Shown one piece after another: positions 13,201 to 64,000 of a stretch of 64,000 bases of DNA. A program made the position numbers and the translations under genes. The notes beneath the pieces were generated by a model. The model made no database searches and was not told the origin of the DNA. It worked only from the letters and a program-made list of their open reading frames with translations. The stretch's first letter is position 1, and the number at the start of each line of letters is the position of its first letter. The DNA comes from Dictyostelium discoideum (Eukaryota): NCBI GenBank assembly GCA_000004695.1, contig CM000150.2:1216001-1280000 (forward strand). The letters run 5' to 3'.

Positions 13201-13934
13201 CAAAACGTCTTGGATTAGAAGAAATCTTACGTTTCACAACAGAGGAAGAATTTAGGAAACCACAAGCCGATGTAATTGAAGCATTAATAGGTGCTGTCTA
13301 TATTGATCGTGGTTTCTTTGAAGCCTATAAACTAACAGTTTGTTGGATTTTTGATGAACCCGATGCCGAATATCCAATTTATAATACAAAATTTGAAGAA
13401 ACTTTGGCCCACCAAGAGATACGTGCTTTTTTAGATGGAATTGGTGTACATATTAGTCATTCATCATTGTTGGAGGAGGCACTCTGCTTTCCCTATTCGT
13501 TTCATTCTGCCTCAAAATCTTACCAACGTTTAGAGTATGTGGGTGATGCAGTTTTAGATTTCTTTGTATCGGATTTCCTTTATGCCACCTTTCCTTTGGC
13601 TCAAGAAGGTCAATTAACAGATTACCGTTCTCGTTTAGTTAGAAACTCCAATCTATCATCAATTAGTAGAAAACTTTGTTTACCTCCTACTGTATCAAAA
13701 GGAATTCGTGATACATTACCAATAAAAAAACTAGGTGATTATTTGGAATCTTTTATTGGTTGTTGTTTTGTTGATACCACTCAATCATTTGAATATACAA
13801 AATCTTTGGTTTATAAGTATTTGGATTTAAGAATTGATAATCCATTATTTGAATTTCCTTCACGTTCTGCCTACTTGTCTATTCATTTAAGATCAGATAG
13901 TGAAGATGATTTAAAATTCTCTGAAACTGATTAA
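9333..13934 (+). CDS. Dicer-like RNase III protein (DrnA/DrnB family): N-terminal dsRBD, long polyN/polyQ/acidic linker, two RNase III domains. CDS join(9333..9474, 9810..11446, 11550..13934), about 1388 aa.
   Basis: Exon 1 and the start of exon 2 form one dsRBD (…GSEHNKDFKVLSNND|MNGKEIESDWKKTKKESEKDCAKRILEFL). The phase-1 intron is gttagt…atag and the split codon is A|TG. RNase IIIa carries the signature ERLEFLGDSVLKL … DVIEALIGAVYID. RNase IIIb carries QRLEYVGDAVLDF … LESFIGCCFVD. Intron 2 is gtaagt…acag, phase 0. I cannot tell from sequence alone whether this is drnA or drnB. Confidence 0.85.
12118..12440 (+). repeat. Hexanucleotide coding repeat array (gaaaat / gaatat / gaaaatcaa)n encoding (EN)n, (EY)n and (ENQ)n inside Dicer-like exon 3.
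   Basis: It reads ENQENQENQENQENQENEYEYENDYEYEYENENENENENENENENEIEIENENVNEYENEYENEYENENEIQIENENEYEYENEYEYENENE. Confidence 0.9.
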
Positions 13935-50447: not shown

Positions 50448-50896
50448 ATAATAAATAATGAAATAAAAAAATAAAAAAAAAAAAAAATAAAAAAAAAAAT
50501 AAAATAAAATAAAATAAACTAATCACTTCTTATTCTAAAAATAAATTAAATAAAAATAAATAAAATTAAAAATAAAAAAATAAAAAATAAAAAATAAAAA
50601 ATAAAAAAAAAAAAAAAAAGAAAAAAAAGAATCTATTAACGCATTTTCATTTTGATTGTGCAAATGTTTTTTTGATTGGAAAATATCTTTTTTTTTTTTT
50701 TTCTTTAATTAACAAAAAAAAAAAAAAATCAAAATTAAAATTCTCAACCAATAATCTAAATATGTTTTAAAAGCCAATTGATTTTTTTTTTTTTTTTTAT
50801 TTTATTTTATTTTTTTTTATATATTTTCTTTTTTTTTCTATATATTTATATATTTTTTTTATTATTTATATTTTTTTTTTTAAAATTTATAATAAA

Positions 50897-51655
50897 ATGA
50901 AATTAATATTTATTATAATTTTATTTATAATTTTTAAAGTAAAACCATTTTTATCAAATAATTTATCAACTAGTGAATGTAAAATTACATTTGAAATAAT
51001 TAAAAATAAATAAAAAAATAAAAAAAAACTAAAAAAAAATAAATTTTAATAAATAAATAAAATAAAAAATAATTATAATAATTTTTAGATAGTTGTGCTA
51101 ATGATATTTCAGAATTTTTAATAGATACAACATTTATTTATAATGGTACATATGGATATGAATTTTGTGAGAATAAAAATTTCTTTTGTAATGGTGATAG
51201 TGTTGTTAGAATTAATTTTAATGGTTCAGATTCATTTGGAGTAACATATTTAAATTGTTTTAAACAACTTTCTTATTTGTATGGTATTATAAGTTTTTTT
51301 ATAATTTTTATTTTTTTTTAATTAATAAATTTTCCAAACTAATATTTAAAAAAAAAAAAAAAAAAAAAGAAAATTAGATCATTCAAAAATGCCATTACAT
51401 TTTTTTAGTACATATATAATTTCACCAATAAATGAAATGTAAGATTAATATATTTTTTTTTTTTATACTAATATTTTTAAAAAAAAAAAAATTATATATT
51501 AACCAAAATAAAAAATAGTTTTATAAATGAACCATCTAATGATATATCATTTTCAAATGTAATATTAAATCCTTCAATTAAAATATTGTAAGTTTTTTTG
51601 TTTTTTTTTTATTTTCATAATAAATTAAAATTTTAAAATAATAAAATTAATTCAA

Positions 51656-51709
<54 letters not shown>

Positions 51710-54700
51710 GTAATTTTATAGGAAAATCACCATCAACTATGAATTTTAATTTTTCTTCATTTAGTGATGTTCAAAATTTAACAATTAAATATATTGGTTC
51801 AGATCCAAATTGGACATATTATAATGATTTAACGTCAAGTAAAACAATGTCAAGTTGGACTATAGTATCTTCAAATGTCCCATCTTTTAATTTAATGAAA
51901 ATTAATTTTTTGTAAATATTTAAATTTATTTTTTTTTTTTCATATTTTTTATTTTTATATTTATTTATTTTTTTTTTTTTTATTTTTTTTTTTTTTTTTT
52001 ACTAATTTTTTTTATTTTTTTTATTTTTTTTATTTAGAAACATATTTTTAACAAAACAATATTCAGAAACAAGTAAAAATAATTATATAACATTTAAAGA
52101 TATTTCAATAGTTAAATTTGAATTATTTAATATTTCAAATTCATTTGAAATTCAATTCCCTGTTGAAATTTTTAATTTTGAAAGAAATTCTCAAGAAATG
52201 TAATTTTATTATTTTATTTTTACCATATAAATATGTATATATATTTAAAATTATTAATATTTTTAAAATTTTAGTGAATTTTCAATTCCATTTTCAAAAG
52301 TTCCAAATTTATTAGATTTTTCAACATTTACAAATAATAGTGGAATTAAAAAGTTAACATTATCAAATGCAGGTTTAAATTTTAATTTTAATTTAAAATT
52401 TCCATTTATAAATTTACAAAATTCATTTTCAAATATTAATCAATTGTAATTATAATTATTTATTATTATTTTTTTTATTATTTATTATTATTATTTATTT
52501 TTTAAATAATTTTATTAATTTTTTATTTTTAATAATTTACACAAAACAAAAAAGTTCATTTAATAATGGTAACTTTAATAATATACCAGATTTATCAATT
52601 TTTGGAATGTCAATTTCAATATTAGATTTATCAAATAATTTAATTAGTGATACACTTCCAGAATTTGAAAGAAGTAAAACAAATTTAAAACATATAAATT
52701 TAAGTAAAAATAATATTACTGGAATAATACCAAGTTCATGGTGTGAAATAGAAAATATTGATTTAACAAATAATAATTTAAATGGTGATTTACCATTATG
52801 TTTTTCTGTATGTATAATTTTTTTTTTTTTTTTTTTTATAATCATTTAAAAAAATGATAATTAACCACTACTTTTTTATTTTTGAAAATGAAAAACAGTG
52901 TTTTTATTCAATAAATTCAAATCAATTTATTAATAATCCAAATTTAATTGTACCAACAACAACAAATAAAATTAGTTATTGTAAAACTTCACCAAATTTG
53001 ATATTTAATAATAATGATAATTGTTTTTATTTTTTTGGATTAGATTTAGGTTCAAAAGTTTATTTTAAAACAAATCAAGATTTTATTTTTGCAAATGATT
53101 GGGAAATTATAATTCCAAATAAAAAATTTAAAAATTGTATTAATAATGAAACTGTATTAAATGACTTACCAACATTATTTGAATTTTATTATCCAAGTAA
53201 TGGTAATAATTTTACATTATCAACTGAAAGAAAGAATCCAATTATTACAGAAGTTCAAATTCCATCTAGTTCATTACCTGGAACTGTTATATTCATTGGT
53301 TCTTATTTTTCATACAATTCATCAATTATTAATATTTTAGTAAACGGGTATCAATGTTTAATAGAAGTTTCCAAATTTAATTATTTATTATGTAAAACTG
53401 ATATTGACGCAATAAATGAAAATAAATATATATTTTCAATTATAACAATTGAAACAATATCGTCAACACGGATTTCATTTATTCCAACTATTGAATCAAC
53501 TAAAATTATACAATGTAATGAATCATGTTTAGAAAATCAATTTTGTGCTAACGATATTGGGAAATGTAAATGTTTGGATGGCTATTTCGGTAGTACGTGT
53601 AATGGAATCGTACATTTTGTTTCAAGTGTTGATTCAGTTGATAGATTAGGTGGTATTGTTACATTGTATGGTGAATTTGGACCAGTTCATGATAATGCTT
53701 CTATTGAAATCGGTAATTTACTTTGTGAAATAATTGAAATTAATAATTATCAAGCTTTATGTAAATTAAATAGTTTTCCTGAAAATTCTTTAAAAATTCA
53801 ATTATTAAATTTCACACAAAATAATTTAATTTGGATATCAAATGAAATTTATCATATTCGTGAAACAATTTTAAATTGTCCAAATGATTGTAACCAATTT
53901 TCAGAATTAAAATCTGGTATATGTAATAAAACTATTGGTTTATGTAATTGTAATATTGGTTGGACAGGTTTTGATTGTAGTAGTAGTATTAATGTTAATT
54001 CAAATTCATCATCAATAAAACCAAATACAACAATAGATAATAATGGTACAACAACGATTTCTTTAGATTTTTTAAATTTTCAAATTTTAATTACAAAATT
54101 ATCTGAAATTAAATTTGATAATTCAATTTATAAAACTTTTAATCTTTTAAATAATTGGAATGTTTTAATTGATAATAATAATAATAATAATAATAATTTA
54201 TATAAATTTCAACAAATTATACCAGGTAATAGAGGTATTATTGAATTTACAATTGAAGAATCAACTAATGATAAAGAATATGAATTTATTGATACAAAAT
54301 ATAAACTTGAAAAAGGTTCAATTAAAATTTCAATTAATATTACAAATTACCAATTTAATAATCAATTAAATACATTACAATTGGAAATTGAAACAAAAAT
54401 AAATGATTATTATTATAATAATAATAGTAATTATAATAATTGTAATAGTAAAAAAGAATCATTAGAAACTTTTAATCAACAACAATTAAATTATATAATA
54501 ATTCAAAAAGATAAAAAACAATTATATGGTCGTTTTATTAATAGAATTTTATCAAATGGTAAACCAACTTTAATTGATACAAAATCAATTAAAAATTCTG
54601 ATAATACTTCAATTACTTTATTAATGTCAATACCACATTGTACAAAATCTTGTATTATTGATCCTGGTAAATATATTATTTTATTTTATTTTATTTTTTA

Positions 54701-55013
54701 ATTTATTATTATATTAATATTTTTTATTTTTTGAAAAAAAAAAAAATAAAAAAAAAAAAAATAAAAAAAAAAAAAAAAAAAAGATTTTTCAGCATTATTA
54801 TCAATTGATCATAAATCATCATGTAAAACTGATAGTGATGGAAATATTATAAATGAATCAGTTGATAAAGGAGTACCAAAAACAACAATAATTGCTGTTA
54901 TTATTTCAATTGTTGGCGTAGCAACCATATTTGGTATTGGTTTATTAATATATAGAAAGAAAAGAGTGGAAAATGAATTAGCTATAAAATTAAAAAATGC
55001 TCAAAAAAAATAA
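50897..55013 (+). CDS. Type-I membrane protein with a signal peptide, LRR repeats, IPT-like and EGF-like modules, a TM helix and a short cytoplasmic tail (paralogue of 37447..41146). CDS join(50897..50978, 51089..51278, 51370..51438, 51519..51587, 51711..51911, 52038..52199, 52275..52445, 52555..52807, 52899..54666, 54784..55013).
   Basis: The signal peptide is MKLIFIIILFIIFKVKPFLS. The first intron sits at the same site and phase as in the paralogue (…SE|C split T|GT, gtaaaa). The LRR exons are FSIPFSKVPNLLDFSTFTNNSGIKKLTLSNAGLNFN… and LDLSNNLISDTLPEF…LKHINLSKNNITGIIPSSW…IDLTNNNLNGDLPLCF. EGF-like modules are CNESCLENQFCANDIGKCKCLDGYFGSTC and CPNDCNQFSELKSGICNKTIGLCNCNIGWTGFDC. The last exon encodes TM IIAVIISIVGVATIFGIGLLIY plus the RKKRVENELAIKLKNAQKK tail. 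Junctions were derived by hand and several may be off by a few nt. Confidence 0.6.
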
Positions 55014-55526
55014 TTTTTTTTTTTTTTTTTTGTTGTTTTTTCAAAATATTATAATATAACCAAAATAATATAAAAAAGAATAATAAAAAATATCTTTCTA
55101 TAAAAAACAACAGGTTTTATTTTTATTTATATGGGGACACAAAAATAAACCACCCAAAAATACACAAAAAAAAAAAAAAAAGTTTTAAATCAAAAAAACA
55201 ATTACTTTTTTTTTTAAAATATTTTGACAGGATGTAAAAATTTAAGAATATTTTTATTTATTTTTTAAAATAGGACAATACCTAGCAGTTTTGTTTTTTT
55301 TTTTTTTTTTTTTAATATAAAAAAATTAAAAAAAAAAAAAAAAAAAAAAGTATAAATTTAAGGTTAAAAGTTAAACTTTTAAATTAAAAAAAAAAAAATA
55401 AGAGTTAAAACAAAAATAAAAAAATAAAATAAAAAAAAAAAATTAAAAAAAAAAATAAAATAAAATAAAATAAAATAAAATTAAAAATTATTTTATTAAT
55501 TTATAAGTTTTTATAATAAATTTAAA

Positions 55527-57446
55527 ATGAAATTAATATCAGTATTAATTACATTTTTATTAGCTACAGTGATTTATTCACAAAGTAAAAAAAATTTTAC
55601 AATTTGATTTTTATTAATTTTATAAACTAAATTTGAAACTAATTAGCCAAACAAATTTTTTTTTTTTTTTTTTTTTTTTTTATTTCTTTAATTTTTTTTT
55701 TAAAAAAATAAAATTAGCCAGTCCAGCAACTTTAAAATTTACTGTTCAAGTTTATGATCAATTCCCAGGTTTTAATAATAATTTTGAACCTGGATTAGGT
55801 AATGCTATTACCGGTTTAATTAAATCAACTTTAAATTCAACATCGCGTGTACCTGAATTGGTTTCAACAGAAGCTCGTATTGTTAAAAATATTAATGGTG
55901 GGATTATAAACCCATCATTATTCCCATACTTTTTCAGTCCACAACAAGATTCAAGTTTACCAGGTCAAAATTCACCATTAAGTCTTGATTTAATTTTCAC
56001 ATATGATACAACTAGAAAAATTTATGTTTATGATAATCAAAACTTTTTCCCAAGTAAGTAAATAAATTATAATAATTTTATTTTTTAAAAATTTTAATAT
56101 TGATTAAATTTTAATTTAATATTATAGTTGATAATCAAGGTTTTGATGTTGATCCAGCAAAAAGAATTTATTTAAATGAGAAAAAAACATATCATAATTA
56201 TCATTTTTGTATGAAAATGAATACTGTTTTTACTTATAAAGGTTATGAAGTATTTAATTTCCGAGGTGATGATGATGTTTGGTAAGTAATTATTTAAAAA
56301 AAAATATATTTTAAATAATTAATAATATTAACATGATTTTTATTTTATTTTTTATTATTTTAATTATTATTATTTTTTTTATTTTTTTTATTTTTAAAAA
56401 AAAAGGGTATTTATTAATAATAAATTAGTTATTGACCTTGGTGGTTTACATAGTCCAATTGGTACAAGTGTAGATACAATGACTTTAGGTTTAACAATTG
56501 GTAATTCTTATAATTTTGATCTATTCTTTTGTGAACGTCATACTGGTAAGTTTTATTATTTTTTATTTTTTTTTTAAAAAAAAGGTAATTTTATTTTATT
56601 TTATAAATATTTATAAAAATTATTTTTTTAGTTGGTAGCACAATTAAAATTGAAACCAATTTATTATTTTATTGTCCATTTAAAGATTATTGTGGAGTTT
56701 GTCAAGGTGATGGTAGTTCATGTTGTAATCCATTAACAACTTGTAATGATAATAATCAATGTACAATTGATTCATGTCCATCAGCAAATACAATTATTGG
56801 TCCAGGTTCAATCCCTAATTATTGTTTTCATACACCAAAAATTAATACAAATCCAATTGATATTTGTTTCAATTATCAATGTAATTCATCAACTGGTAAT
56901 TTCGATCCAATTCCAATTCCATGTCTTGATAGAAGTTCTGAATGTTTATCAACAATTGGTTGTAATTCTACTGTTGGTTGTCAATATGAAAGTATTTGTA
57001 ATTCAAATGTTTGTAATATTCAAAATCAATGCTCATCAAATGGTACTTGTGTTCCAAAATCATCAAATGACTGTGGAATTGAATTAGATGGTCAAGTTGA
57101 TAAATGTAAAATTTATTCATGTGATTCAAATGGAGGTGTTGGTTGTATTAAAGAAGATAAATGTAAACCAAGTAGTAATCCATGTATTTCAACTCAATGT
57201 AATGCTACTAACGGTCAATGTTATGAAACTCAAATTCCAGGTGATATTTGTGATTGTGGTTGTGGTATTCCAGAAAATAAATGTAAAGTATCATGGTGTA
57301 CACCAGAAGGTATTTGTCAACCAAAATTCAAATCTGAAATTGATGATAATAACTCTTGTACATTAGATTCATGCGATCCATGTACTGGTATTATCTCTCA
57401 TATGACCGCACCACAATGTTTAAGTTGTAATCAATGTTCAAATTAA
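55527..57446 (+). CDS. PA14-domain secreted protein with a C-terminal Cys-rich repeat region (PsiA-like family), copy 1. CDS join(55527..55584, 55718..56053, 56128..56281, 56406..56545, 56631..57446), about 500 aa.
   Basis: The signal peptide is [19 protein letters not shown]. The PA14 core spans three exons (…[29 protein letters not shown]|[20 protein letters not shown]…[21 protein letters not shown]|VGSTIKIE…). The last exon has about 40 Cys in CxxxC / CNxxNxC repeats (…[30 protein letters not shown]…CLSCNQCSN*). All donors are GTAAGT and all phases are consistent. The Cys-rich exon is absent from the ORF track because it contains no start codon. Confidence 0.7.
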
Positions 57447-57941
57447 TTTTTAAAAAATAAAATAAAAATGAGAAATAATTAAAATAATTAAAACAAATAA
57501 ACATTAAAATGATATTTAGGTTTTAAATTTAAATTCTAAAATCACTATTAATTCTAACAATTTTAATCATTTTTATTTTTTTAAATATTTTTAAAAATTA
57601 AAACCATAATTAATAATTATTTTTTTAATTAAATAATATTTAACAAGATGTGACAAGAATTGAAATTTTTGGCACAATTTGGTCAAGTCACTAATTAAAG
57701 TTACCCCATCATGATATTTTTTAGGTGAGATGTGGGGTGGGATTGAATTAAGGGTTGTAAGACAGTTTTTTTTTTTTTTTTAATTTGATGGTTTTTTTTT
57801 TTTTTAACTTAAACTTTTTTTTTTAAGTTGGGAAACCCATAAGTGGGAAAAAAAAAAATTAAGAAAAAAAATAAAAAAAAAAAAAAAAAATTGATAATAA
57901 TTAAATTATTTTAAATTGGTTTATTTAAAGCACAGTGATAG

Positions 57942-57974
<33 letters not shown>

Positions 57975-58008
57975 GATTATTTATATCAAACTAAATAATA
58001 TATATATA

Positions 58009-58884
58009 ATGAATAATAACTTATTATCAGTATTAATTACATTTTTATTATCTACAGTGATTTATTCACTAGGTATAATTTTACAATATTATTTTTTTAA
58101 AAAATTATTATTTTATAAACTATTTTTACTAATTTTTTTTTTTTTTTTTTTTTATTTTTTTTTTTTTTTTTTTTATAAAAAAAATTAGCTAATCCAGCAA
58201 CTATAACATATTCTGTTCAACTGTATGACCAATTCTCAGGCTATAACAATAATTTCCAAACTAATGTAACTGGGGCTAGAGTTACTGGTTTAGTTAAATC
58301 AACTTTAAATTCAACGACTCGTGTACCTGAATTAGTTTCAACATCAAATGGTGGTTTAAATGATGCAGGTCATATTTTGAATCCATCATTATTCCAATAC
58401 TTTTTCAGTCCACAAATAAATTCAAGTTTACCAGCTGAAAATAATCCTTATTCTTTTGATTTAGTTTTCACATATGATAAAAATAGAAATACATATGTTT
58501 ATAATAATGAAGATTTTTTCCCAAGTAAGTAAATAAATTTTAATTTTTAATAAAATACAAATTTAAAATATTAATAAAATAATATAGTTGATCGTAAAGG
58601 TTTTGATATTGACCCAGAAAAAAGAATTAATTTAAATGGTGCAACCTATCATAATTATCATTTTTGTATGAAAATTAATTCTGCTTTTACCTATCAAGGT
58701 TCAGAATATTTCAATTTCCAAACTGACCATGAAGTTTGGTAAGTAATTGTTTTAAAAAAAAAACTATAAAATTATAAAATCAATAATAAATAATATTTTA
58801 AGTGATAAATATTAATAATATAATTTTTTAATTATTTATTAATATTATAATTATAATTTTTATATTTTTATTTTTATTATTACT

Positions 58885-58929
<45 letters not shown>

Positions 58930-59386
58930 ATTTTAATAGGGCATTTATTAATAATAAATTAGTTATTGATCTTGGTGGTATACATGGTCCAATAGCTGAA
59001 AGAATTAATACAAAAACTTTAGGTTTAACTATTGGTCGTATATATAATTTTGATTTATTCTTTTGTAATCGTCAAACTGGTAAGTTATATTATTTAAAAA
59101 AAAAAATAAAAAAAAAAAAAAAAAATAATATAAAAAAAAATTTTTTTTGAATTGGATAAATAATGTAAAAAATAAATTAAACCATAATTTTTAATTTTTT
59201 TATTTGTATTTTTTTTAATTTTTACTATTTTTATAAAACTAATTTTACTATATAATTAATTTTTTTAAAAAAGTTGGTAGTAAACTTAAAATTGAAATAG
59301 ATATAACTTATTCATGTCCATTTAGAGATTTTTGTGGAGTTTGTTTAGGTGATGGTAGTTCTTGTGCAGGTGGAAGAATTAAATAA
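58009..59386 (+). CDS. PA14-domain protein, copy 2, truncated: it ends just after the PA14 domain and lacks the Cys-rich tail. CDS join(58009..58072, 58189..58524, 58588..58738, 58940..59079, 59274..59386), about 267 aa.
   Basis: The exon structure is the same as copy 1. The signal peptide is [22 protein letters not shown]. The last exon reads [37 protein letters not shown] and then diverges into unrelated, non-AT sequence. Sequence subtype B is shared with copy 4 ([29 protein letters not shown]). Confidence 0.6.
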
Positions 59387-59509
59387 AGTCTATTCCTGTA
59401 GATTCATAAAAGAAATTATTATCGGGGTTGGAAAGTTAGTAAAAATTTGAAAAAAAATTCTTTAAAGGGCTACGCCTTAGGAAATAGACCTAACAAGCCA
59501 CCAAAGATG

Positions 59510-59542
<33 letters not shown>

Positions 59543-59815
59543 AAATTTTTTAAAAAAATTGTGACAAGAATTGAACACTTGACTTTAATTTTATTGTAGG
59601 TTCGATTCTCAGATAAATGAAATCAATATCTATTTTAATTTTTTTTTTTTTTTTAAATAATAGCCCAATTGTTAGTTGCTTCTCCTTGAGATACTAGATC
59701 TCATTACAATATCCATTTTAATATTAATGATTAGTTTTTTTATTTAATTTTGTTTGAAACTTTAGTTTCAATAGAATTATTTTGTAGGTAATTTTAAAAA
59801 TAAAAAAAATATAAT

Positions 59816-59854
<39 letters not shown>

Positions 59855-60123
59855 TTTAAAAAATTAAATCAATTAGAAAATAATGGAATTTGAATTAAAA
59901 ATTAATAATGATAATTATAAAAATAATAAATAATGGACACTTTAAAAATTAAAAACATTATTTTTTGAAACCCAAAATTTTTTTTTTTTAATTTTAAAAA
60001 AAAAAAAAAAAAGATGGCAATGAAGTGTGATCACACCGTATTTCTCATTAAAAAAAAAGAATATTTTTAAAGTCGATAACAAATTATTTTTTTTTTTTTT
60101 TAATATACAAAATCTTAAATACC

Positions 60124-60221
60124 AAAAAAAAGGGCGATGTTTCATATAAAGTTTCCAGACGGTTTTTTTTTTATTAAAAAAAATCAAAAAAAATTAAATC
60201 ACGGCTTTTTTTAGATTTTTT

Positions 60222-60261
<40 letters not shown>

Positions 60262-60350
60262 TCGCCATGAATTATGATCAATATTGATGTTGGACGGTTT
60301 TTTTTTTTAAAAAAATCTAATACAAAATTAAATCACTTCTTTTTTTTTTT
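60124..60350. repeat. Two to three imperfect ~125-bp direct repeats containing gat(c/g)gc(c/a)atg … gacggttttttttt … aaattaaatcac(g/t)(g/t)ctttttt.
   Basis: Units lie at ~60124-60215 and ~60252-60350, with a weaker copy at ~60010-60090. They sit in the spacer between PA14 copy 2 and copy 3. Confidence 0.6.
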
Positions 60351-60790
60351 TTTTTTTTGTTTTTAATTTTTGTTTATTAAGTAATTTGAAAAAAAAAAAG
60401 AAATCGTTTTTTTTTTTTTAGTTTGAACATTGGGGTGTTTTAAAAAATAAGTGGAGATATTTAGAATTTGATAAAAAAAAATTAAAAATAACCAATGATT
60501 GTGAAAAAAAATAAAAAAAAAACTTTGTTTCCAAAGATAAAAAATTATTCTATTAAATTGATATATTATTTGAAAAAAAAAAAAGTAAAGGTTGAACATA
60601 CTGAAGATTTTTAAAAAAAAAAAAATTAAAATAAATAATTTTAAAGTTTTGATTGGTTAATTAAAATTAATTTTAATTATATTTTAAAAAAAAAAAAAAA
60701 ACTGTTAATTTAGTTTAGTATAAATAGTTTAGTAAAAAAAAAAAAAATTCAGTTTGTTTTAAAATAAAAAACTAAACAATAATATTTAAA

Positions 60791-61559
60791 ATGAAATTAT
60801 TATCAGTATTAATTACATTTTTATTAGCTACAGTGATTTATTCACAAAGTAAATAAAATAATATTGTTTTTTCAAATTATTTTTATAAAAACTAATATTA
60901 AAACTAATTTTTTATATTTTATTTTCTTTTTTTTTTCTTTTTTTTTAAAAATTAGCTAATCCAGCAACTTTAACATTTACTGTTCAAGTTTATGATCAAT
61001 TCCCAGGCTATAATAATAATTTCCAAACTAATGGTGCTGGTGCAAGAGTTACTGGTTTAATTAAATCAACTTTAAATTCAACAACTCGTGTACCTGAATT
61101 GGTTTCAACAGCTACTGGTGGTTTAAATGGAGTAGGTCTTATATTGAACCCATCATTATTCCCATACTTTTTCAGTCCACAACAAGATTCAAGTTTACCA
61201 GGTCAAAATTCACCATTAAGTCTTGATTTAGTTTTCACTTATGATACTACTAGAAATATTTATGTCTATAATAATCAAAACTTTTTCCCAAGTAAGTAAA
61301 TTAATAACAAATTTGTTTTTTTATAAAAAAAATAATATAAAATTTATATTAATATAAAATTACAATAAAATATAAAATTAAAATTAATAAAATAATATAG
61401 TTGATAATCAAGGTCTTGATGTTGATCCAGCAAAAAGAATTTATTTAAATGGTGCTACATATCATAATTATCATTTTTGTATGAAAATGAATACTGTTTT
61501 TACTTATAAAGGTTATGAAGTATTTAATTTCCAAGGTGATGATGATGTTTGGTAAGTAA

Positions 61560-61600
<41 letters not shown>

Positions 61601-62869
61601 AGTATTAATTTTTTATTTATTATTATAACTATTTTTAATTTTATTTTTTTATTTTAAAAGGGTATTTATTAATAACAAATTAGTTATTGATCTTGGTGGT
61701 GTACATGGTCCATTAGCTGCAAGTGTTGATGCAACAACATTAGGTTTAACAATTGGTAATTCTTATAATTTTGATTTATTCTTTTGTGAACGTCAAACTG
61801 GTAAGTTTTATTATTTTTTATTTTTTTTAAAAAAAAAAACCTATTAATTTATTTTATTAATTTTTTTATTTAATTTTTTTTTTTTTAAAAAAAAGTTGGT
61901 AGTACAATTAAAATTGAAACCAATTTATTATTTGTTTGTCCATTTGAAGATTATTGTGGAGTTTGTCAAGGTGATGGTAGTTCATGTTGTAATCCATTAA
62001 CAACTTGTAATGATAATAATCAATGTACAATTGATTCATGTCCACCAGCAAACACAACTATTGGTTCAGGTTCAATCTCTGATTATTGTATTCATACACC
62101 AAAAATTAATACAAATCCAATTGATATTTGTTTCAATTATCAATGTAATTCATCAACTGGTAATTTCGATCCAATTCCAATTCCATGTCTTGATAGAAGT
62201 TCTGAATGTTTATCAACAATTGGTTGTAATTCTACTGTTGGTTGTCAATATGAAAGTATTTGTAATTCAAATGTTTGTAATATTCAAAATCAATGTTCAT
62301 CAAATGGTACTTGTGTTCCAAAATCATCAAATGACTGTGGAATTGAATTAGATGGTCAAGTTGATAAATGTAAAATTTATTCATGTGATTCAAATGGAGG
62401 TGTTGGTTGTATTAAAGAAGATAAATGTAAACCAAGTGAAGATAAATGTCATGTCGTATCATGTGATTCATTAACTGGTTCATGTATTACAACTCCACTC
62501 GAAGATCCATTAGCTGGTTTACATTTATGTTCAATTGCACGTTGTAATTCATCAACTGGTGAATTTACATATGATCCAATTATTTGTACACCAAGTAGTA
62601 ATCCATGTATTTCAACTCAATGTAATGCTACTAACGGTCAATGTTATGAAACTCAAATTCCAGGTGATATTTGTGATTGTGGTTGTGGTATTCCAGAAAA
62701 TAAATGTAAAGTATCATGGTGTACACCAGAAGGTATTTGTCAACCAAAATTCAAATCTGAAATTGATGATAATAACTCTTGTACATTAGATTCATGCGAT
62801 CCATGTACTGGTATTATCTCTCATATGACCGCACCACAATGTTTAAGTTGTAATCAATGTTCAAATTAA
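60791..62869 (+). CDS. PA14-domain secreted protein with a Cys-rich tail, copy 3 (subtype A, like copy 1), about 550 aa. CDS join(60791..60848, 60955..61291, 61400..61551, 61661..61800, 61896..62869).
   Basis: It is about 90% identical to copy 1 at the nucleotide level across exons, introns and the 3' flank. It is about 50 aa longer, through an extra Cys-repeat block (…[53 protein letters not shown]…). Confidence 0.7.
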
Positions 62870-63367
62870 TATTTTAAAAAAAAATAAATAAAAATAAGAA
62901 ATTATTAAAATAATTAAAACAAATAAAAATTAAAATGATATTTGAATTTGAAATTTAATTTTTAATTTCATAATTTAATTTACTAATTATTTTTTACAAT
63001 TTTAATTATTTTTATTTTTTTAATAATTTTAAATATTTATTAATTAAAAAAAATTTAACAAGATGTGACAAGAATTGAAATTTTTGTTCACTTGGGACAA
63101 TTTGTTCAAGTCACTAATTAAAGTTACCTCATCATGACCTTTTTTGTGTGAGATGTGGGGAGGGGTTGAATTATGGGTTGTAAGATATTTATTTTTTTTT
63201 TTTTAACTTGATGTTTTTTTAAACTAAATTTTGGAAATCCATATGTAAGAAAAAAAAATAATAATTAAATTTATTTAGTATAGAAAAATTTTATTTTAAA
63301 TTGATTTATTTAAAGCAAAAAAAAAAAAAAAAAAAAAAAATTAAATTTATTTATATTAAACTAAATA

Positions 63368-64000
63368 ATATTTATAATGAAATTATCAGTATTATATTTT
63401 TATTATCTACAGTGATTTTTTCACAAGGTATAGTTTTACAATTTTATTTTTTAAAAATTATTTTTAAAATTATTACTGCTCTTTAACTAATTTTTTTTTT
63501 TGTTTTTTTTTTTTAGCTTATCAAGACATTTTAACATTTAATGTTGAACTTTATGATCAATTCCCAGGTTATAATAATAATTTCCAAACTAATGGAACTG
63601 GTGGTAGAGTTACTGGTTTAGTTAAATCAACTTTAAATTCAACAACTCGTGTACCTGAATTAGTTTCGACATCAATTGGTTCAAATGATGCAGGTCATAT
63701 TTTGAATCCGTCATTATTCCAATACTTTTTTACTCCACAATTTGATTCAAGTTTACTAGGTGACAATTATCCATATGATTTTGAATTAGTTTTAAAATAT
63801 GATAAAAATAGAAATACATATGTTTATAATAATGAAAACTTTTTCCCTAGTAAGGAAATAAATTTTAATTTTTAAAAAAATACAAATTCAAAATATTAAT
63901 AAAATAATATAGTTGATGGTCGAGGTTTTGATATTGACCAAAAAAAAAGAATTTTTTTTAATGGTACTATATATCATAATTATCATTTTTGTATGAAAAT
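63368..64000 (+). pseudogene. PA14-domain gene, copy 4 (subtype B), partial at the window end. The exon-1 reading frame is broken by a 4-nt deletion; downstream exons are intact.
   Basis: Exon 1, atgaaattatcagtattatatttttattatctacagtgattttttcacaag|gtatag, translates MKLSVLYFYYLQ* versus [21 protein letters not shown] in copy 2. Exon 2 (63517..~63850; …[50 protein letters not shown]…) and the start of exon 3 are open and conserved. Confidence 0.5.

Follow-up and report, generated by a model that had tools for sequence, protein, structure and literature searches.

The window analyzed here is a stretch of 64,000 nucleotides from Dictyostelium discoideum, with about 20% G + C and short, AT-rich introns, and it belongs to an AX4 contig of 4,923,596 bp that is taken to be chromosome 1. 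Its last part holds a tandem array of psi genes. With the peptide encoded by exon 2 of the last copy as the query, tblastn returned four tandem copies, all on the forward strand. The spliced models of copies 1 to 3 are exact matches to the database proteins psiE, psiS, and psiB of D. discoideum AX4. Copy 4 closes the array between psiB, the intact long paralogue immediately upstream, and the Hsp90 gene hspD, and it extends past the end of the window. This position after psiB and adjoining hspD is the same in three further syntenic assemblies (L001, L002, and L008). Two RefSeq numbers between those of psiB (XP_647479) and hspD (XP_647482) are unaccounted for. A tRNA scan of the window found none. 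The intact genes and the upstream element of the array are as follows.

55527 to 57446, forward strand: copy 1, psiE, 500 aa in five exons, exact match to Q55FQ6 / XP_002649211.1
58009 to 59386, forward strand: copy 2, psiS, 267 aa in five exons, exact match to Q55FQ5 / XP_647478.1
60791 to 62869, forward strand: copy 3, psiB, 552 aa in five exons, exact match to Q55FQ4 / XP_647479.1
63060 to 63187, forward strand: conserved, relatively G-rich block (..GTGAGATGTGGGGAGGGGTTGAATTATGGGTTGTAAG), also present upstream of psiS and, as regards its 3' part, in the copy-4 orthologues

Exon 2 of copy 4 shares 61 to 79% identity with psiE, psiS, and psiB, which places copy 4 in the psi family by homology. 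Its nearest paralogue is psiS (79% amino acid identity in exon 2), which is of the short type without a Cys-rich tail and has the same exon–intron layout and the same kind of signal-peptide sequence in exon 1. Moreover, positions 62871 to 63530 align with the upstream region and exon 1 of psiS (57446–58156) at 75% over 728 columns, an extent that indicates homology rather than chance similarity. Introns 1 and 2 are likewise homologous to those of psiS, as in a gene duplicated together with its introns and flanks. Both copy 4 and psiS are preceded, at a distance of ~200 to 300 nt, by the G-rich block, which reads ..GTGAGATGTGGGG(A/T)GGG(G/A)TTGAATTA(T/A)GGGTTGTAAG (63060–63187 and 57640–57775). 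It is a putative promoter element rather than a coding exon, and it may resemble the promoter elements (G-box/CA-rich) of developmental genes in Dictyostelium.

Copy 4 is also homologous over exons 1 to 4 to psiB, psiE, and the wider psi family, with the first two of which it shares the array. In a profile search, psiB and psiE carry PA14 and Dicty_CTDC domains. However, the long members have a Cys-rich tail of 250 to 320 aa, which gives the Dicty_CTDC match, whereas copy 4 has no tail of its own and only a relic fragment downstream. The tail is a feature of the long subtype only; psiS also lacks it, so it is not needed for the short subtype. In the 1.4 kb between the end of psiS and psiB (59386–60790), no trace of a Cys-rich tail was found, which means that the short type arose by truncation. 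Comparing the two long copies, psiE (56632–57446) lacks a 52-residue Cys-rich stretch that is present in psiB (61896–62869; KPS/EDKCHVV...ICTPS/SNP, slashes marking the junctions), and the tails are otherwise almost identical. This pattern points to a recent event, either a deletion or gene conversion between these two genes.

The psi family, which includes psiA, psiF/DicA1, and psiN, comprises secreted or exposed proteins, and we take the PA14 cysteine-rich quorum-sensing protein of the Dictyostelium literature to be psiF/DicA1. Psi proteins are described as matrix-type proteins, some of which (psiA, psiF, and psiN) act as signals (PMC4931340), and PMC6889452 cites a PA14 cysteine-rich quorum-sensing protein as its reference 37. 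Literature searches on psiB, psiE, and psiS and on a psi pseudogene returned nothing usable.

Lesions in copy 4

The features of copy 4 within the window are listed below, all on the forward strand.

63377 to 63427, forward strand: exon 1 (signal-peptide exon), 51 nt, with the ancestral ATG at 63377–63379 aligned with that of the seven homologous exons
63383 to 63385, forward strand: in-frame loss of 3 nt, one TTA left of the TTATTA found in psiB, psiS, and the copy-4 orthologues
63391 to 63395, forward strand: frameshifting loss of 4 nt, one ATTA left where all homologues in the exon-1 alignment have ATTAATTA
63413 to 63415, forward strand: TGA that ends the ATG frame prematurely, 12 codons in (MKLSVLYFYYLQ)
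63428 to 63516, forward strand: intron 1 (GTATAG...AG), retained, acceptor AG at 63515–63516, homologous to psiS intron 1
63517 to 63849, forward strand: exon 2, phase 1, open, one codon shorter than in the paralogues
63850 to 63912, forward strand: intron 2 (GTAAGG...AG)
63913 to 64000, forward strand: start of exon 3, open, leaving the window and continued from assembly L002

Eight exon 1s were aligned: AX4 copy 4, psiE, psiS, and psiB and the psiS and copy-4 orthologues from two other assemblies. All seven exons other than that of copy 4 read ATGAAATTA-TTA-TCAGTATTA-ATTA-CATT, and their AX4 members are longer than the 51 nt of copy 4 (58 nt in psiE and psiB, and 64 nt in psiS at 58009–58072). 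The initial annotation had proposed a 4-nt loss in the signal-peptide exon with a frameshift to an early stop, and the alignment bears this out: one ATTA is missing, and the ATG frame runs into the TGA after MKLSVLYFYYLQ. Both exon-1 strings that it quoted occur in the window, that of copy 2 exactly at the psiS exon, and the intron 1 donor described as retained is found as GTATAG at 63428–63433. The interval given for the lesion, 63368 to 63420, pointed to the right exon but was a few bases off at both ends. Two further changes went unmentioned there, namely the in-frame TTA loss and a C>T substitution at 63395 directly after the remaining ATTA. At the site of the 3-nt loss, other homologues have TTAATA (psiE), TTATCA, or CTATTA.

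As exon 2 is in phase 1, exon 1 must have a length of 3n + 1 nt, and the sole exon-1 frame that continues into exon 2 of copy 4 is frame 3 (..EIISIIFLLSTVIFSQ/A, the slash marking the splice junction). Copy 4 has no signal peptide in frame with both an AUG and the remainder of the protein. Programmed −1 frameshifting was considered as a rescue and rejected: inspection shows that the ATG frame lacks an X XXY YYZ heptamer around TAT TTT TAT, and such frameshifting would in any case leave the lesions at the 3' end.

The conserved NPAT motif of exon 2, which forms the mature N terminus in the other short copies and psiB and reads SPAT in psiE, is YQDI in copy 4. Since the window ends within exon 3, the 3' lesions were seen in the near-identical assembly L002 (GCA_054883475.1). 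There, exon 3 is open as far as ..TDHEVW, and exon 4 contributes 15 conserved residues and EI before a TGA stop (..GGIHEI). Comparison of L002 with the ACTFIW orthologue indicates that ~690 nt are absent just past the window end, comprising the remaining exon 4, intron 4, and exon 5. As to the reading frame, the statement that the gene stays open from exon 2 onwards is borne out within the window (63517–63849 and 63913–64000) and fails past its end, where the stop and the ~690-nt loss lie. The conceptual product of copy 4 scores 19.6 bits against Pfam PA14 (PF07691; gathering cut-off of 24 bits) over profile positions 8 to 89 of 147, compared with 47.9, 51.9, and 59.2 bits for the intact paralogues psiS, psiB, and psiE, respectively; a complete PA14 domain above the gathering score was not found in it.

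Overall, copy 4 bears at least two independent disabling lesions and lacks two defining features of a functional psi member: its signal peptide is not in frame, and its PA14 domain is incomplete. In psiS, by contrast, the frame is open over 267 aa and the PA14 domain passes the Pfam threshold; what sets copy 4 apart is the frameshift in exon 1, the changed N terminus of the mature protein, and the loss of the 3' half.

A psi relic lies 3' of copy 4, at 13470 to 13770 of L002, about 470 to 770 nt past the window end. It consists of an exon-2-like piece (QTNGACGRVTG, then a stop) and a tail of ~57 residues that resembles psiB amino acids 462 to 518, in which the conserved Cys are replaced by Tyr or Phe. 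ACTFIW (L008) has this relic as well, in better condition; the relic is the remnant of yet another psi gene.

Orthologues and selective constraint

The short copies vary among the related assemblies as follows.

ACTFIW (L008): copy-4 orthologue intact, with an intact exon 1 and open exons 2 to 5; ends like psiS
ACTFIR (L001): copy-4 orthologue interrupted by two stops, TAG in exon 2 and TGA in exon 3, although exon 1 is intact
D. cf. discoideum ACTFIY (L003): short type absent
D. citrinum (L010, L011): short type likewise absent

Like psiS, the copy-4 orthologues of ACTFIW and ACTFIR end without a Cys-rich tail. ACTFIR has disabled its copy-4 orthologue independently of AX4. Its psiS orthologue (L001 4496–5700, corresponding to window 58009–59386) is also dead, with TAA in exon 1 (GTA TAA ATT) and a further stop in exon 4 (between NFD and FFCNRQT), whereas psiS is intact in AX4. 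The short copies are a recent addition to the array that has been lost independently in different lineages. L001 and L008 (GCA_054859385.1 and GCA_054859355.1) are labelled D. discoideum, yet they are only about 85 to 92% identical to AX4 here (window 53646–64000), whereas GCA_054883475.1 is essentially identical to it; the species label seems to cover clearly diverged lineages.

Selective constraint on exons 2 and 3 was estimated from Nei–Gojobori counts between AX4 and the syntenic ACTFIR assembly. The ω values were 0.12 for psiB, 0.38 for psiS, 0.43 for psiE, and 0.65 for copy 4. Compared with the intact orthologue of ACTFIW, copy 4 shows 42 nonsynonymous and 14 synonymous changes (ω ~0.78), a ratio not different from neutrality (binomial p = 0.41), although the sample is small and the confidence interval wide; it does differ from the 5:11 of psiB (Fisher p = 0.002). 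The changes polarized to the AX4 copy-4 branch number 26:9. These values indicate that constraint on copy 4 is relaxed, as in a pseudogene. The 160 codons of exons 2 and 3 have stayed open, and the probability of seeing no stop after 35 neutral substitutions is ~0.13, which makes the open frame weak evidence for constraint. The initial annotation had called exon 2 onwards conserved and had offered a very young pseudogene as one option. Neither qualifier is supported, given the near-neutral counts and the deletion of ~690 nt of the 3' half.

Origin and status of copy 4

We conclude that copy 4 is very probably an unprocessed psi-family pseudogene, that is, a duplicated, intron-containing sister of the short paralogue psiS. 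A pseudogene was one of three explanations put forward for the exon-1 lesion, next to a sequencing or assembly error and a moved start, and it is the one supported by lesions in both exon 1 and the 3' end and by near-neutral substitution. If the error explanation were right, AX4 would truly have the 4 nt (ATTAATTACA at 63391) and an intact gene. Errors are indeed plausible in such AT-rich, low-complexity sequence, and the comparison is one of assemblies rather than raw reads. However, a second deposited assembly, L002 (labelled D. discoideum, locus tags ACTFIT, covering window 50727–64000), is identical to the window at 1131 of 1131 nt over 62870 to 64000, lesion included. Over the 13.3 kb compared, the two differ only in homopolymer lengths (L002 has one A run shortened by 23 nt), at a few places inside low-complexity A/T runs, and in two clean SNPs, as an independent determination would, implying that GCA_054883475.1 is a separate determination and no copy of the reference. 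If its source is a laboratory strain derived from AX4/NC4, it confirms the sequence and says nothing on natural populations. The deletion is real in the AX4-type lineage; two deposited assemblies share the frameshift, and the ~690-nt loss and the stop are present in L002. Regaining the 4 nt would, moreover, leave the 3-nt loss, the near-neutral substitutions, and the 3' deletion and stop unrepaired. We therefore give an error almost no credence.

A moved start, in which exon 2 is joined to a different 5' exon or AUG, or psiB is read through into copy 4, to give a functional protein, fares little better and is very improbable. The intron 1 acceptor and exons 2 and 3 are intact, and the sole upstream ATG with a stop-free route to a phase-1 GT donor, at 63173 (ATGG/GT or ATGGGTT/GTAAGA, slashes marking the donor), could in the second form (63173–63185) splice in phase to exon 2. 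However, it would encode just M or MG, without a signal peptide, and the open frame that feeds exon 2 (63265–63483, preceded by a stop) is devoid of ATG. What lies upstream is homologous to the psiS promoter rather than to any coding exon. Automated annotation of GCA_054883475.1 models copy 4 only as a fusion with psiB (P0011, ..APQCLS/SYQDILTF..), but this model omits the last six psiB residues, and its tail is truncated, relic-derived sequence; it is an artefact that shows that no usable start exists. Any product of a moved start would also lack the C-terminal part of PA14. Exact look-ups of the 57-aa exon-2 and 61-aa exon-1 ORFs in Logan assemblies, aimed at other strains, gave no match, a result that speaks neither for nor against a product.

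What argues against a wholly dead gene is that the promoter-proximal block and the splice sites of both introns have been kept, and the locus may still be transcribed. Copy 4 could then be a transcribed pseudogene with a residual role, either through a noncoding or NMD-targeted transcript from the retained promoter or as a gene-conversion donor for psiS. The latter finds a hint in lineage-specific residues shared by the psiS and copy-4 orthologues of ACTFIR (for example KETGG, against TS(N/I)G in AX4), which point to conversion between short copies. However, passive decay explains the pattern equally well, and the 12-codon ORF shows no conservation, having been created by the frameshift. We regard such a role as improbable.

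In the AX4 lineage, the signal-peptide exon has lost a repeat unit at two tandem duplets, TTA at TTATTA and ATTA at ATTAATTA. Replication slippage, which is expected to delete single units in this way, is the likely mutational mechanism of both losses. The ATTA loss shifts the frame, such that a ribosome starting at the ancestral AUG stops after 12 codons; the frame of exon 2 is without an AUG. A further deletion of ~690 nt has taken the remaining exon 4, intron 4, and exon 5, so that even a corrected reading ends at ..GGIHEI inside the PA14 domain. We infer both the order of these lesions and the absence of a functional protein.

Copy 4 is thus comparable to the unprocessed pseudogenes of tandem families that evolve by birth and death, with introns and promoter kept, several independent lesions, ω near 1, and a lineage-specific loss with an intact orthologue elsewhere. 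There is no notable difference from this textbook case; copy 4 is an ordinary decaying tandem duplicate and reflects birth-and-death turnover in a well-studied genome. It matters little beyond being a small, clean example of this process in a family that includes developmental signals. Neither a fifth exon set of psiB nor a mis-sequenced gene, this part of the AX4 reference should be read as a pseudogene. In addition, two automated fused models in newer assemblies are flagged as artefacts, namely P0011 (psiB and copy 4) and a 770-aa ACTFIR gene model that fuses psiE and psiS. If dictyBase already lists copy 4 as a pseudogene, nothing here is new.

A broader reading, which we hold to be rather unlikely, is that psiS and copy 4 are a recently born pair that is turning over rapidly and in a lineage-specific manner across cryptic lineages that all bear the label D. 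discoideum, and that this variation in presence and absence could contribute to lineage-specific developmental signalling if the pair act as signals like psiA, psiF, and psiN. The AX4 frameshift would then be one visible step of that turnover.

The neighboring hspD differs in orientation among the assemblies. It lies on the psi-gene strand in ACTFIR (L001 12623–14984, forward) and opposite to the psi genes in the AX4-type assembly (L002 14187–16588, reverse), ACTFIY (L003 18779–21192, reverse), and ACTFIW (L008 10001–12337). This difference is a local inversion, with a breakpoint near the 3' damage of copy 4.
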